30,459 bases of DNA from Bdellovibrio sp. (GTDB lineage: Bacteria; Bdellovibrionota; Bdellovibrionia; Bdellovibrionales; Bdellovibrionaceae). Location: NCBI GenBank assembly GCA_046318155.1, contig JBKCUU010000055.1:1-30459 (forward strand), read 5' to 3'. Within the stretch, counting starts at the first letter, position 1. Every line of letters begins with the position of its first letter. A program made the position numbers. This document shows, in pieces, positions 1 through 15,000 of the stretch.

Positions 1-3000
1 CAAGAAAAGTGATTTTACATCGAGACAAGCATTGCCAGTACGTCGATCAAAAATCAGGTCGCCAATGTCAGAGCACCTTCGGCCTCGAAGTGGATCATGA
101 GTAACCGCGCTTTGCGGGCGGGGATCACCAGCTGAATAATCGTCGAGCACTTTGCAAGAAGCACAACCTGCATCGGTACCGTCAACAGGCGCAGAGACGG
201 TTTTTCTAGCTGGGTCGGAGTCTTGATCCAAGGAGACGGTCCGACAACGATGACCCTCCATGGAGCAGACCACTAAGGACCACAAGAGTCCGCTCTAACC
301 ATAGAAAACCAAGGAGTCTTATGATGAGCTCTCTACGTTTACGTCAGACCAAGTTAGTCAGGCCGGCGAGTTTATTGCCGATTGGTCAGGCGATGCTTTG
401 CGGGCTCCGCTGGAGGGAATGCGGGATCCTAGGTCTGCCGAGGCAAAACGCTACCTCCTCATGTCATAATGAACCAAAAAAAGTGACCTCCTTGAGTCAC
501 TGTCAAAATCTTAGACGCCCAAATCCCGTTCTTATTTTACAGGCTGATTTCAGGGGTGGCATCTTTTTCGTAAGGGCGGTCGGTAGGTGCCGAGCCATCG
601 AAAGGGATTTATATGCGCTTGAATTTCAATTCTCTGATCGCATTCTCGCTGCTTCTCGTTTCAACGTCCGCGTTCGCCCAAAGCGTGCAGACCGGGAACT
701 GGTACACGGCCGAAAAAGAATTTTCCCTGAAACCCTCGGATGCGATCGGTATCGATGGCCACGCCTTAAGCGAGCTGATTGGTCGCGACTACAAAGTCCT
801 CCGCGGAACTGATATCAACATTGTGAATATCGATGAACAAAACAAGAAAGTTGAAATCGCCTTCAATAACGAGGGACAAGATCCTTTGAATAAAGAAAAA
901 CTCCCCTTCTCGTTGACCGTTGATATGCGCGACTTGGATCCCGCGATCTTAAGTCAAATCCATTTCGATGAATCCGATGCGTTTCCAGATGACGACGAAG
1001 AGCAGCTCTCGGGAGTTGATGAAATCCTTGAAGTCGCGCGCAACGGACGCCGAGGTGCTCGGGTTGGGGTCCGAAATGGTGTCACTCGACCTCGCACTTC
1101 GGTGAGCCGCGCCAGCGGGAAAGCGGCTGGACGCGTGATCCGTGTTTTTGGCCGAGGTGGCATGACAATGTGCTTAGCTGAAGTGCGCGTCAACGCAAAA
1201 TCGATCTGCGGACAAACCATGCCGACAATCTCTCGCGCAGCCCTCGGTTACGAAGCCTACCAGGCGGCTGGATGGAGACGCGTTTCGTACAGCCCCGATA
1301 CAAACCCTGTTTGCACCGCTTGCTTTTGGGGCGGTGGACGAACAGATTGTGGTGGTCAAGCTTGCGGTCACGCCGCTTTAAAGATCCGCGATGGTGCTTG
1401 GATTGGCGCTGGCATCCGAACGCCTCCTGAACTTCCAGATCAGAGCGGTTGCACACGCAGCGTTCGCGGCAAAAAAGTCTGTCGTGTTCCCTACGTGAGA
1501 CACGGTTGCTTGGTCGCCCCCGGTCACTAAATCAGAATTACATTGATTGCAAAAGGTCCAAAATCTCGGGGGCCTTTTTTAGATTGTGTTTCGCGGCGAA
1601 GATCATTTCGATCGCTTTCTTTTGTGTCAACTTACCTTCGCCCATCCGCTGACAAGCGAGGCCTTCAATTGGATCTGTGATTTTGTAAATGGACTCATGC
1701 TGAGGCCAGAGATTATCTGCCTGATTGCTGCCCCCGGCGCAAAGCGGGATCAGGTGGTCGATCTTAAACTGCGGGCGCTGCTTCTTTTCAATGCGAAAAC
1801 CCAGTTTGTCATTGTAGTCCTGGATGATCTGCATTTTTTCTGATGTTTCAACATCACGCTTACAATAAGGAATGTGCTCTTTGTAGCGATAGCTATCGGG
1901 AGTCGTACAATACGACCCGGGAGTCAAAGTGCGGTCGGGACCAATTGGAAAACGGCCGCCTTCTGCTTGTGCAAAAACTTGAACCGAAGAGACCAGGACG
2001 GCGAAGACCATCAAGACGTACGATTTCATAATTCCCCTATTAGTCACCCATTTACGGCAGGTGGTAGAAACGCCAGACCCTATTTCCGGCTTATAACTGG
2101 AGCACGCCTTGGTGATACGAAAGAGCTCCCCCCTCCGGCAACAAAAATAAAATTTGCCAGGGATGTCGAAGTTCGGGCCTTGCGCTTAAGAGGCTTTCGG
2201 CCTAGCGTTTGAGTCCATGGTTAAGTTGCTGATTCCTCTTCTTTATTTCGTGTTTTCGCTCCCCCTTGCGGCGCTGGCGAAAGACAAAATCGAGGACCTC
2301 ACACGGCTCGATGTTTTGCAAGAATCTCAGTCCCTTCACCCCGGGCAGCTCACCCACATCGGATTTCAGGTCCATCTGCTCAAGAAGGGTTGGCACACCT
2401 ACTGGAAGAACCCCGGCGATGCCGGCGCTCCGCCTAAACTCAAAGTCAGTGCAAATCTTGCCGGGATTGAGGTCGGCGAAATTTTGTTTCCGACTCCGCT
2501 TCGCATCGAAACAAAGACACTCGTGTCATTTGCCTACAAAGATGAGGTTTTGTATTTAGCGCCCCTTCGGATCCCAAAGTCCGTTTCTCCAGGTCAACGT
2601 TTGAACATCACGGTTGATTTCGAATGGCTGATTTGCCTTGAAGTTTGCATCCCCGCGCATGAAAAGCATGAGCTTAGCTGGGAGATCAGGAGCGAAGCTC
2701 GCATCGTGCCCGGCCCAAATGCAGGCCTGTTAAAACATGCGATCTCGGCTCTTCCTGTTCGCCGCGGGGAGCAGGGCGAGCTGGATGAAAAATTGGTCGG
2801 ACGCTTTCAAGGACTGCCGGGCAAGGTTCAATTTGTCGATTTTTTTGCGGCCCCTGACTCCGCACTTCTTCTGAATAAACCCAAAGGTGTTATTCGCGGC
2901 CCCGAGGCCGAAATCCAATTCGTCAAAGCTGAGTTTGCCGAGGGCGCGCCCAAAGCTCGCGGCCTTCTGGTGGTCGAAAATACTCAAAAGCAACGATCAA

Positions 3001-12000: not shown

Positions 12001-15000
12001 AAGCCGTTGGCCTTGGCACCTTTTTGCGCGATCGCAACATATCTTTGAACGTTGCGAAATTGACGGGTGTCGTATTGGTGGTTGTCACCATCTTGCATCG
12101 AGATTTTACGACCCAAGTTTTTTTGAAAACGTTGACGCTGATCGTGAGCCTTGGCGCGAGCGCCCGAGAAGCTCTTCCAGCATTTCACTTCGCCCACCAA
12201 GACGGCGTCTTGAGAACGCTTGTCAAAGATGACAACATCAAGCTCACCAATCGTGCGGCTGCTATCTCCATAAACGATTCCATTGACGATGTCGTAATCT
12301 TTTGCGGGGTAGATTTTTTCAAGCTCGATCACGGCTACTTTTTCGCAAACCATACCGATGATGTCGTAATTCGCACCTGACTCTTTGAGCTCTTCAAAAA
12401 GCTCAGAAACAGGAGCCGCTGACACGAGGTTTGAAAACGAAAATACCAAGAGAAAAAGCGACATGCTTTTCATAAAAAACGTCCTCCGTAGACACTCATT
12501 TACGGCGAGTGGTAGAAACGCCAGGCCCTATCCCCGGCTTATACTTAGAAACCTGGCCCACGAGATAAACGAGATCTTAACAAGAGGCTAGCGACTTTTG
12601 TGCGTTGTGCGTCAAGACAGGCGCGCCCGAATCCACGAAACCACGGGGGCTCTCGGTGATAATGCTTGCCTCTCACAATCATGATATCATTTTGATCAAA
12701 GATTTTGCCGGTATCAACACTCGACCCCACCCGTTGGATCAACCATGAAAATCCGTGTCCCGTTAAAGCAAGAAATTAAGCGCCTCAGTTATTTGTTTGT
12801 CTTACTCTATCTTGCAACGATCGCTCTTCTTGCAGGCCTTTTTGTCTTGGGTCATCACAACGATCAGGTCCGGCTTGCCAGCTCTTATTCGAGGGCCTCG
12901 AAAGACAGTCTTATTACTCTCGATTTGCGCCAGGCAATTGTGATCCTCAATCCAGCCTTGCAAGATGGCTTTACGGCCATCGCAATTCGCGACCACCGCG
13001 AGACGTTAAGAGCGGGTCTTCCCAAAGAATCGGCGCTGGAAGACTCGGGTGATCCCTTTGACGTCAGAATCCGCATGAACATTCAAGTGGGTAATTCCGG
13101 CACCGCTGCAGAAACGATTGCGATTTTGGATTTTCACTACTCGATTTTGACCCAGCTCTTGTTCGCCGCGATCGCCTCGCTGCTGATGTCAGGGGTTGTT
13201 TTTTTCTTTTTTAGGCGCGGTATCCGCAACCTTGAACGCAAACATTTTGATGATCTTGAAGCCCAAAAAACAGAACTCCTGGCGTGGGTCGCTCTGCAGG
13301 TCTCGCATGACATGAAGAGTCCCTTGGGAGTTTTAACGACGCTGGCCCAAACGGCAGGACCCGGGCTTCCCGAACCGGACCGGCAGAAGATCATCGAGGC
13401 CTCGAAGCGAATCTCTGACATTACTGGTGATCTCCTGAGTAAAGCACGCGGCCTGAGTCAGCCTTTGGCCGCGCCTGTGGCCAGGTCGCACATGCGTGAG
13501 CTTCACATCTCAGATTCGATGAACCGCATTACGGCCGAAAAAATTGCCGAGTACAAAGGCCGAGCCGGCCTTGAAATCGAAGCCTACATCCCAACTGACA
13601 TTACAGTTTTGTCACGACTGAGTGAGAAAGAGCTGGGCCGAATTATTTCAAACATGGTGAACAATAGCGCCGAAGCCTTGCCTGAGGGTGGTTTGATCAA
13701 AGTCGTTCTTCGCGAAAACAAAACCAATGTGAGCGTTCAAGTTTCTGATGACGGCAAGGGGATGACGTCCGAGATTTTAGAAAAGGTGGCAACGGGCGGT
13801 TTTTCGAATGGCAGCGGGCATGGACTGGGACTCAGTCATGCGCGCGCCGCGATCGAAGAAGCGGGCGGAAAGCTCGACATTATTTCAACCCCGGGTGCTG
13901 GAACCATCATTACGATTCAACTACCCAAGTAAGCAGGGGCTTTATTTTAAGAGGGCACTTCAAGTTTGTCGCGCTTGTCGCGCTGCGCAGTCTTTCTCAT
14001 GAGCCGTGATGGTGGGAGTGCCAAAGCAAATCACTCTTGCTAGACTTTTCAAAAGTGGGCTCGATAACTGTCGTCCTCGTCATGATGTTCATCACTCGAG
14101 TCAAGGCCCTGAAGAGCGGACAAATCCCCATGGATTATTTTCGAACCTACTCGATGACCATCGACATTCCCGCCGCCGCTCTCCAGGCCCAAAATCACTT
14201 CAAAAATCTATTCAAGGTCCCCGTCTTGTTTTATGCCGGATGCCTGACGGCGATGAGCTCTTTTTACTCTCCAAGCGCTTCGCGAACTTGAGAAAAAAGA
14301 ACGGCGTCGTCTGGCGCTGGGCTTGGCGCGACCTGATTCAACAAGAGCTCTGCGGGTGTTCGCATGTTATCAACGGCACGTTTCATATCCGCGAGGATCC
14401 TCGTCTTTTCATCGACAAGAATAGCTTGTTGAATTTCGCCGACAAAATCACGTCCCATGGCATACCCTTGCTGACCAACAAGTCGCCCCGCATGCTGCTC
14501 ATAATACGAATTCGTTGGCCATTCTCCCGGGTTTTTTGATAAAAGAAAGCATGAAGAACCAATCAATTTTTATTTTTGTGCTTCCACTTTTTTTGAGCCT
14601 TCAAGGATGTCAATCCATGCCAACAAATCTGCCTCCTCAGCCCACGGTCGAACATGTCGAAATTCCCCGCTTTATGGGAACCTGGTATGTGATTGCGACA
14701 ATCCCAACGATGTTCGAAACAGGCGCCCACAATGCCGTCGAAACCTACACGTGGAATGAATCTGAAAATCGCGTCGACGTCGATTTTAGATTTCGCAAAG
14801 ATGCTTTTGACGGAAAAGAAAAAGCCATTCCACAAAAAGGTTTTATTTACAATCAAACCACAAAAGCCGAATGGCGCATTCAACCGTTTTGGCCGTTGAG
14901 CTTTGCCTATCTGATCGTCGACCTTGCGCCGGATTACTCGGATACCATCATCGGCGTCCCCAACCGCAAATATGTTTGGATCATGGCACGGCAGCCGCAA

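Follow-up and report, generated by a model that had tools for sequence, protein, structure and literature searches.

Introduction

Guanine-I riboswitches (RF00167, the B. subtilis xpt-pbuX type) usually stand before genes of purine synthesis, salvage or uptake (PMC9295807), on which they are known to act as a brake; the pocket positions that define the class are given in PMC9295807 and PMC10556655. The nearest precedent for the gene context described here is the 2'-dG-II riboswitch of Bacteroidetes, likewise a purine-family aptamer, which in the passages of PMC8872408 drawn on here precedes endonuclease I, ComEC and other DNA-acting genes. That class requires C51, a two-nucleotide J3/1 insertion and a G-C junction pair (PMC6847200). 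For SAM-I, a Shine-Dalgarno (SD) sequence in the 3' side of P1 is a described layout of direct translation attenuation.

The secreted nucleases Bd3507, Bd0934 and Bd1244 (Endonuclease I) of B. bacteriovorus HD100 are treated in PMC7925074, in whose main text the word riboswitch is absent. In the passages of that paper cited here, Bd3507, a nuclease-family protein, is demonstrated to be secreted into the bdelloplast (catalysis by the purified protein lies outside these passages), and Bd3507-mCherry is produced in the bdelloplast at 2 h and also in rich PY medium. From the same passages, extracellular DNase activity goes up when bd3507, or bd0934 and bd3507, are deleted, with no strong change in transcripts; the authors suggest that translation may be increased or that an unidentified nuclease may be at work. 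On deletion of bd0934 the bd3507 transcript falls late and does not rise. Of the 20 HD100 nucleases listed in print, none is annotated as HNH or as a stand-alone PD-(D/E)XK protein. Our literature search returned no description of guanine riboswitches before exported nucleases; surveys of purine riboswitch contexts may list them.

Results

Two guanine-type aptamers precede nuclease-like genes

The window analysed is the 30,459-nucleotide contig JBKCUU010000055.1 of a Bdellovibrio sp. genome (GCA_046318155.1). The features around which the analysis turns are the following.

2021..2118, minus strand: purine riboswitch aptamer 1, guanine type (RF00167, 51.3 bits)
Parts of aptamer 1, minus strand: P1 5' strand 2103-2094, U22 2093, J2/3 2071-2064 (U47 2070, U51 2066), A73/C74 2044/2043, P1 3' strand 2042-2034
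1538..2029, minus strand: g01208 (P0001), 163 aa, HNH/His-Me-finger-like, with a signal-peptide-like N-terminus
12469..12566, minus strand: purine riboswitch aptamer 2, guanine type with U73 (RF00167, 51.2 bits)
Parts of aptamer 2, minus strand: P1 5' strand 12551-12542, U22 12541, J2/3 12519-12512, C74 12491; P1 3' strand from 12490 as 3 bp, a 2x2 loop and 4 bp
11907..12473, minus strand: g01222 (P0002), 188 aa, PD-(D/E)XK-like fold, with a signal-peptide-like N-terminus

An earlier note had reported both aptamers, each directly followed by one of these reading frames. Our searches returned the same two elements with the same scores, above the RF00167 gathering threshold of 37 bits, and the lengths and places of both genes are as it gave them. 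The whole genome holds 2 purine aptamers only, whether searched with RF00167 or with a lineage model. The guanine-type pocket that had been read from the sequence is also borne out, with J2/3 GUUUCUAC, U22, U47, U51 and C74 in both aptamers; the position numbers were mapped onto GUUUCUAC by the xpt numbering. Position 73 is A in aptamer 1 and U in aptamer 2, as in 46 of 146 aptamers (aptamer 2 among them). The three-way junction of P1-P3, the covarying stems and the kissing-loop G-G/C-C are all present. On aligning 47 aptamers, P2 was found 93% and P3 96% paired, two-sided changes in paired cells numbered 182 as against 57 in shuffles, and the true pairing reached 87% as compared with 34-41% in slid controls. 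The aptamer structure is beyond chance. Single-sequence folding z-scores were uninformative (-0.8 to +0.9).

The switch stands before nuclease-like families throughout the family

A search of 61 related genomes gave 48 RF00167 matches, 43 of which stand before four unrelated, putatively exported nuclease-like families (g01208 family 24, Endonuclease I 13, EEP 3 and g01222 family 3). None of the 48 is followed by a recognised gene of purine synthesis, salvage or uptake; EamA transporters with undefined substrate lie behind 2, and DUF3465-like genes are also among the targets. In a 151-genome sample of the phylum, 33 of 34 matches precede nuclease-like families, and the switch is present in 136 of 150 genomes of the family. 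The arrangement proposed for the two genes of this window, a riboswitch ahead of an exported nuclease-like gene, thus holds family-wide, known nuclease families and bd3507 of HD100 included. For the latter, primer E040 (PMC7925074), which ends at the bd3507 start codon, has 0 mismatches to the aptamer at the related locus L135, where it covers the P3 3' strand, J3/1, the P1 3' strand, the SD and the GTG, and the bd3507 qPCR primers have 0 and 2 mismatches to the L135 gene. As judged from the primer match, the 3'-terminal 25 nt of this switch, if not more, are present before bd3507.

These Bdellovibrionaceae switches differ from usual guanine-I members in their exported nuclease-like targets, in having no terminator and in having the SD inside P1. 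In the studied genome purD and HGPRT genes are without the switch. The switch is also absent from 34 of 80 loci of the g01208 family (including 24 of 25 labelled Bacteriovoracia), from 16 of 30 loci of the g01222 family, and from some Endonuclease I genes, namely 2 of 3 in strain YOA24 and the sole one in the genome studied. Upstream of the 34 g01208-family loci that lack the switch, inspection by eye gave no common motif that might replace it. The tree of 30 g01222-family proteins requires 4 gains or losses of the switch, which favours neither a single origin with losses nor repeated recruitment.

Leader geometry and the direction of the switch

The leader elements, all on the minus strand, are as follows.

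2033..2038, minus strand: Shine-Dalgarno-like AGGGGA of g01208, by sequence inside the extended P1 3' strand
12482..12487, minus strand: Shine-Dalgarno GGAGGA of g01222, by sequence 4-9 nt past C74
2112..2141, minus strand: promoter-like site of leader 1 (TTGCCG, 18 nt, TATCAC), read by eye
12562..12590, minus strand: weak, uncertain promoter-like site of leader 2 (TAGCCT, 17 nt, TATCTC), read by eye

The ATG of g01208 (2029) lies 14 nt and that of g01222 (12473) 18 nt past the C74 of their aptamers. An SD before each start codon had been proposed with a spacing of 5-8 nt; the SDs are there, but we count 4 nt (after GGGG, g01208) and 9 nt (after GGAGG, g01222). An upstream GTG at 2047 was rejected as the start of g01208, as it lies inside P3 and is without an SD. 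Among related leaders the start codon falls 13-17 nt past C74 in 125 of 134, and in 73 of 82 the first SD base lies 4-6 nt from C74. A TTG[AC][ACT] motif at -56..-44 from U22 is found in 83 of 134 leaders as against 13 in shuffles. From the promoter-like site of leader 1, transcription would begin about 12-15 nt ahead of U22, although the consensus scan did not call this site; the sigma-70 scan found no minus-strand terminator and no promoter beside either aptamer. A start from the site of leader 2 would leave out the upstream CCUCU that is the SD partner in longer folds, and the scan offers 12717-12689 as an alternative candidate for this leader. In RNA runs (assembled contigs) of one study the whole bd3507-type locus is spanned in 3 of 4, and in 1 a deep contig ends 11 nt before U22, at the predicted start site, which, coming from one study, is not evidence of a start; the share of words in common is 0.21-0.28, the majority not being shared. 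If the mRNA does start just before P1, the leader would consist of the aptamer alone.

Since the leader would barely exceed the aptamer, translational OFF is the best reading of the switch, and we consider it probable. Geometry, covariation and opening energies speak for the claim that the SD lies in the P1 3' strand and is shut off by ligand, whereas SD pairing probabilities do not separate the bound from the free state (mean 0.66 constrained-bound versus 0.65 free, shuffled flank 0.54, n=82). Pairs 3-5 of P1 covary (0.90/0.82/0.81 with their own partners as against 0.71/0.57/0.55 with swapped ones); for pairs 7-9 no covariation was found. The 5' strand facing the SD is 65-82% C/U as compared with about 48% upstream, and the P1 duplex outscores upstream windows in 72 of 80. 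In 126 of 136 leaders the ligand-competent fold makes the stretch from SD to start codon costlier to open than it is in the free ensemble, and in 7 cheaper; this outcome is partly built in by the fold constraints. For leader 2 the SD was said to lie inside the extended P1 in an unconstrained fold; this is what we obtain if the leader is cut near the predicted transcription start, but not in three other windows.

We regard as unlikely the opposite logic, a feed-forward ON switch in which prey-derived guanine binds and frees the SD from J2/3 or from the P3 5' strand for the ribosome to enter. Its attraction is that the invariant UUUCU of J2/3 is able to pair with GGAGG-like SDs, which in 36 of 136 leaders gives a fold of greater stability than that of the aptamer, and that in free folds the chief SD partner is the aptamer core in 38 of 134 leaders (leader 1 among them in one window). 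The P1 5' strand is the chief SD partner in only 62 of 134 free folds, which counts against the OFF reading. The bd3507 gene is moreover on in mid-growth and in rich medium and falls in the bd0934 deletion; this timing and late drop fit the OFF logic poorly. Yet the few leaders with cheaper SD opening in the ligand-competent fold, together with the C/U enrichment and covariation, point to the extended P1, a ribosome would hardly fit beside a bound aptamer when the SD begins so close to C74, and the raised DNase activity of the bd3507 deletions would be left unexplained.

Ligand class

The aptamers share with guanine-I the three-way junction, the kissing-loop G-G/C-C, the U22/U47/U51/C74 pocket and the A-U junction pair. 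A 2'-dG-II identity was rejected on U51, a two-base J3/1 and the A-U junction pair in 46 of 47 aptamers. Xanthine-II, guanine-II, 8-oxoG and adenine variants were likewise set aside, there being no G51, no J2/3 or J3/1 insertions and no U74, and U47 being kept. That the regulon is real and its natural ligand is another compound, such as 2'-deoxyguanosine or guanosine as for 2'-dG-II, appears quite improbable: in the purine scaffold unusual gene associations have repeatedly pointed to a change of ligand (PMC9295807), the gene context resembles that of 2'-dG-II in the part of PMC8872408 cited above, and position 73 varies, but U51 is kept where 2'-dG-I/II have C51 and xanthine-II has G51, and the junction carries neither insertion nor exchange of its A-U pair or U47 as tallied above.

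The two proteins

As had been noted, neither g01208 nor g01222 belongs to a Pfam family over cut-off; NCBIfam assigns none either, and no PDB sequence matches either protein over threshold. The description of both as new families holds to this extent only, for the HD100 member of the large g01208 family is already an "HNH endonuclease" in UniRef; this homologue (CAE79935.1) is 54% identical to g01208.

The g01208 gene is the last on its strand and stands tail to tail with 613-1530. Its best sequence and fold matches are HNH/His-Me finger nucleases (Cas8-HNH, Gme HNH, McrA), with which it shares a D-H strand, a GGxN loop and a following helix; unlike them it remains below each Pfam HNH cut-off (HNH_5 19.4 vs 27.5, HNH 15.6 vs 21.4; the HNH cut-off is passed by 2 of 34 sampled relatives), has a signal-peptide-like N-terminus and likely disulfides, and its invariant helix residue is E122 rather than His or Asn. 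Among the residues earlier called invariant, D91 and H92 (150 of 150 relatives), N102 (91-98%) and N106 (99-100%) keep their place, as do C41 and C56 of the four cysteines; H111, C97 and C126 do not, being kept in only 57%, 27% and 22% of 91 more distant relatives, with C97 and C126 varying together. The fold resemblance to HNH domains is weak, as first described (Foldseek best E 0.10; best match Z 4.2, rmsd 3.5 over 76 aligned residues). D91/H92 line up with the HNH catalytic strand of Cas8-HNH (E 0.045). PHROGs gave a weak endonuclease VII match only, for g01208. A profile search returned 2,779 clusters at 50% identity (490 at E<=1e-10), and by Atlas labels the family extends outside Bdellovibrionota; three viral contigs carry distant relatives without the switch.

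For g01222 the count of 88 homologues was reproduced, and E77, D79, E95 and K97 proved invariant in 85 sequences, as did E44, L78, V96, C43 and C98 (C179 and C185 nearly so). Its top fold matches are 2okf (Z 7.9, rmsd 2.9 over 100) and 8zue (Z 7.4), and nearly all of 50 are PD-(D/E)XK-type nucleases, a Z of 7.9 being in the range that unrelated models also reach. With such nucleases (XisH-like 2okf, HamA, Card1/Can2, NucS, NERD) it has in common the core fold and the E..D..ExK motif; it differs in being stand-alone, Cys-rich and, by prediction, exported. Among labelled records the family is confined to Bdellovibrionota, and profile comparison gave no relationship between the two families. A crude hydrophobicity rule for signal peptides is positive for both proteins and for 132 of 142 non-EamA switch targets, and also for 35% of 2,320 genome ORFs.

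To judge by motif, predicted fold and the regulation shared with Endonuclease I and EEP proteins, g01208 is most likely an HNH-like and g01222 most likely a PD-(D/E)XK-like nuclease. That the switch is real but the two exported proteins bind nucleic acid or process nucleotides, and are nuclease-like in fold only, is very improbable, for although database matches over threshold are missing, the HNH scores are weak, the best Z is not distinctive, DUF3465-like and EamA genes share the regulon and EEP proteins include phosphatases, it is countered by D91/H92 on the catalytic strand, by the invariant E77-D79/E95-x-K97 with its PD-(D/E)XK-type fold matches, and by the switch common to both genes and Endonuclease I.

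Discussion

We think it likely that Bdellovibrionaceae have recruited a guanine-I-type riboswitch as a feedback brake on the translation of exported nucleases. A promoter, suggested by the conserved -35-like motif, would start the mRNA a few bases ahead of P1. In the leader sequences the start codon is read 13-17 nt after C74 and the SD 4-10 nt after it, within or facing the P1 3' strand. At low free guanine/hypoxanthine P1 would breathe, the ribosome load and the nuclease be exported (in print for Bd3507, predicted for g01208 and g01222). Nucleic acid of prey or extracellular origin would then be cut, taken up and turned into free bases, a putative route for which the studied genome encodes PNP_UDP_1-family proteins and two HGPRT genes; guanine would lock the junction and P1, hide the SD and stop translation. 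The same switch precedes four nuclease-like families and not purine-making genes, which suggests that Bdellovibrio-type predators tune prey DNA digestion to their own purine supply. A guanine riboswitch would here apparently govern the outside supply of purines via exported nucleases.

More tentatively, at somewhat under even chances, there may be a lineage-wide purine-sensing prey-digestion regulon, in which an unmodified guanine aptamer serves as a bare translational OFF switch ahead of DUF3465 and of no fewer than four mutually unrelated exported nuclease families, forming an end-product loop across the envelope; it would explain the raised DNase of the bd3507 deletion, with CAE79935.1 as the compensating nuclease, and would make DUF3465 a nucleic-acid-handling protein. 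The brake could be the mechanism by which Bdellovibrio digests prey DNA in controlled steps, as has long been noted, and could underlie the unexplained published mutant phenotype; it assigns a probable function to two unnamed protein families, and provides a native small-molecule control element for a chassis under development as a living antibiotic. The published plasmid pEBF11, a fusion of mCherry to the promoter region of bd3507 that reaches as far as the start codon, makes the switch idea testable at once.

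Aptamers and their class

RF00167 (Rfam; gathering score 37) matches the window at two positions, and genome-wide (2.75 Mb, 95% complete) no RF00167 aptamers were found beyond these two:

2021-2118, minus strand: aptamer 1, 51.3 bits; start codon of g01208 (ORF of 163 aa) 14 nt past C74
12469-12566, minus strand: aptamer 2, 51.2 bits; start codon of g01222 (ORF of 188 aa) 18 nt past C74

Both have J1/2 UAA, J2/3 GUUUCUAC and C74 in common, while position 73 is A in aptamer 1 and U in aptamer 2. From 48 RF00167 matches we aligned 47 aptamers, one being omitted for a long P2 insertion; P2 pairs at 93% and P3 at 96%, compensatory changes occur at 12 of 12 P2 and P3 pairs, and the kissing-loop G-G and C-C do not vary. 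Compared with the variant purine-riboswitch classes, as given in the available portions of PMC9295807, PMC6847200 and PMC10556655, the Bdellovibrio-type aptamers keep U22, U47, U51, C74 and the A-U junction pair and lack junction insertions. By sequence they are of the guanine-I class, which agrees with the claim of an earlier note that these two, of guanine type, are the genome's only purine aptamers. Position numbers in J2/3 are those of xpt.

J2/3 reads GUUUCUAC in 137 of 146 parsed aptamers; four further aptamers lie outside the parsed set, three of them with GUAUCUAC. The J2/3 variants GUAUCUAC and GUACCUAC (changed at position 48, and 49) occur at the relatives' loci L245, L254, L259 and L058, and L240 is changed from J3/1 to P1. 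One genus (L030, L256, L257) has low-scoring aptamers 11-53 nt longer than the model, the extra length in L030 being an insertion in P2/L2. A P3 base of CAC/GUG, different from the family consensus, is found in both window aptamers and in L022 and L042 of the same genus; its presence in both window aptamers may reflect a local switch duplication.

Genes behind the switch

Searched without bias for RF00167, 61 genomes gave 48 matches, spread over 31 of them. The next ORF belongs to the g01208 family in 24 cases, Endonuclease I (PF04231 over cut-off) in 13, EEP in 3 (one below cut-off), the g01222 family in 3, DUF3465-like proteins in 3 (113-207 nt from the aptamer) and EamA in 2. Genes recognised as serving purine synthesis or salvage are absent from this position in all 48 cases; purD scores above cut-off in 56 of the 61 genomes, and two matches each to HGPRT and PNP_UDP_1 are found in the window's genome. 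In a second sample of 151 genomes across the phylum, RF00167 and the lineage model returned the identical 34 matches in 24 genomes (g01208 family 21, Endonuclease I 7, EEP 3, g01222 family 2, EamA 1). The lineage model matches in 136 of 150 family genomes. Pooling gave 146 distinct aptamers, with the two query families (g01208 and g01222) over-sampled: g01208 family 88, Endonuclease I 28, EEP 15, DUF3465-like 6 (3 adjacent to the aptamer), g01222 family 5 and EamA 4. One switch over four unrelated folds is hard to explain by descent alone, though kin are not independent.

Among the best 80 of 351 g01208-family loci, 46 have the switch directly upstream, and no switch was found elsewhere in the 394 kb around these 80. 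By label, it is present at 45 of 55 of them outside Bacteriovoracia against 1 of 25 inside. It also stands at 14 of the best 30 g01222-family loci. The Endonuclease I gene of the window's genome is without a switch.

A separate aptamer group with J2/3 GUCUCUAC precedes EamA-family transporters (L046:314-400, L048, L176, L261). Here the start codon lies 41-54 nt past C74 and P1 is without the Shine-Dalgarno sequence (SD); this group may use another expression platform (purine export, ON). DUF3465-like exported proteins form a fifth target class (L248:1576-2043, L252:1576-2028, L258:1034-1513, L004, L009, L014), a hint that they take part in nucleic-acid handling. After the aptamers of L009 and L014 come an SD and TTG, but these open just a short frame ahead of the DUF3465-like gene.

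The two proteins behind the aptamers

Both g01208 and g01222 begin with a basic-hydrophobic leader, neither has a Pfam or NCBIfam family over cut-off, and we found no relationship between their families. For g01208 (model pLDDT 93.1) the earlier note had listed D91, H92, N102, N106, H111 and four Cys as invariant. In 150 relatives D91 and H92 are invariant and N102, N106, E122, C41, C56 and R58 nearly so, but H111, C97 and C126 are kept in the near group only. The best PDB sequence match is Cas8-HNH (E 0.045), and the fold matches include many HNH domains, weak and mixed with helical bundles. From sequence and model, g01208 is best called a member of an unmodelled HNH-like family, a predicted nuclease. 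That the family is new holds as far as Pfam and NCBIfam are concerned, but a profile search gave 2,779 clusters and UniRef already names the HD100 homologue 'HNH endonuclease'. The closest named relatives are Bdellovibrionaceae and Bdellovibrionales records; Atlas neighbours are labelled Actinomycetota, Acidobacteriota and phage. Distant relatives (P0230, P0208, P0199/P0209/P0223/P0237) show a dual-specificity phosphatase fusion, a tandem repeat and an unannotated C-terminal domain.

For g01222 (model pLDDT 93.7), E44, E77, D79, E95 and K97 are invariant in 85 sequences of an alignment from 88, and nearly all of 50 fold matches are PD-(D/E)XK-type (best Z 7.9); E77, D79, E95, K97 and these matches support the predicted PD-(D/E)XK-type assignment made before. 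Members of the g01222 family occur in 66 of 156 family genomes, at most 4 to a genome.

The switch at bd3507

B. bacteriovorus YOA24 has two switches, one ahead of an Endonuclease I gene and the other ahead of a homologue of g01208. In the available text of PMC7925074, primer E040 served to retain the promoter region of HD100 gene bd3507 as far as the start codon. This 25-mer has 0 mismatches to a YOA24 aptamer over the P3 3' strand, J3/1, P1 3' strand, SD and GTG, and the bd3507 qPCR primers have 0 and 2 mismatches to the gene behind it. At least the 3' part of the switch is therefore present at HD100 bd3507. According to the same text, Bd3507-mCherry is exported into the bdelloplast, and extracellular DNase activity is raised by deleting bd3507, alone or together with bd0934, but not by deleting bd0934 alone; no transcript is strongly up, and its authors propose an unidentified nuclease or increased translation. 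Its main text, as available, does not mention a riboswitch. HD100 CAE79935.1, which UniRef calls 'HNH endonuclease', belongs to the 90% cluster that holds the g01208 homologue of YOA24, and g01208 is 54% identical to a member of that cluster; the table of 20 HD100 nucleases in PMC3593177, as available, has no HNH-annotated entry.

Direction of control

In 125 of 134 leaders the start codon follows C74 by 13-17 nt, so a terminator has no room. A -35-like TTG[AC][ACT] is placed 44-56 nt ahead of U22 in 83 of 134 leaders (shuffles: mean 13, maximum 23), and a loose TA-rich -10 comes after it; transcription would therefore start 8-20 nt ahead of U22. The SD begins 4-6 nt past C74 in 73 of 82 leaders, the strand opposite it is C/U-rich, and P1 pairs 3-5 covary but 7-9 do not. 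Cut to the predicted start and folded unconstrained, both window leaders form the aptamer, and an extended P1 takes in the SD. The SD-to-start stretch is costlier to open in the ligand-competent fold than in the free ensemble for 126 of 136 leaders (mean 6.5 vs 4.35 kcal/mol) and cheaper for 7, a test biased upward by its constraints.

Against OFF control, SD pairing probability is similar in bound and free folds, other leader windows yield other folds, and J2/3:SD pairing prevails in 36 of 136 leaders. Also, per the available text of PMC7925074, Bd3507 is produced both 2 h into predation and in rich medium, and the bd3507 transcript drops in the bd0934 deletion. SAM-I riboswitches with the SD in the P1 3' side have been described, under the name direct translation attenuation (PMC2258182, available portion). 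The earlier proposal that the ligand shuts translation through an SD in the P1 3' strand keeps the support of opening cost and P1 covariation, but not of SD pairing probability. Given a working switch, we hold the OFF direction to be likely. The best reading, which we consider reasonably probable, is that purine end products would feed back on exported nucleases through translational OFF control.

Relation to known switches and neighbouring genes

Public Rfam annotation probably marks these aptamers already; the aptamer is known and its role is new. The pairing of switch and nuclease-like genes is real and conserved, and probably unreported as a regulon. The literature search, whose scope did not include Singh and Sengupta 2012 and Weinberg 2017, turned up no account of nucleases under a guanine riboswitch in Bdellovibrio, nor did the available portions of PMC3627812, PMC10265488, PMC2258182 and PMC8872408. 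The nearest precedent is 2'-dG-II ahead of endonuclease I and ComEC (PMC8872408, in part). That the window's organism is a predator we infer from kinship alone. Neighbouring genes in the window include:

613-1530, plus strand: 305-aa protein with a signal peptide, an acidic linker and a Cys-rich C-terminal domain, its gene tail to tail with g01208
2217-4870, plus strand: DsbD-like protein, then exported thioredoxin-like protein, divergent from g01208
10335-11321, plus strand: lipoprotein-like protein; it has a proline-rich linker, and an SLT transglycosylase domain matches below threshold (E 0.015)

The 613-1530 protein has no Pfam or PHROG match; the Cys/His motifs of its C-terminal domain recall, to our eye, a peptidoglycan amidase. 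Both switch-controlled proteins have conserved Cys pairs, which may have a link to the DsbD-like and thioredoxin-like proteins.
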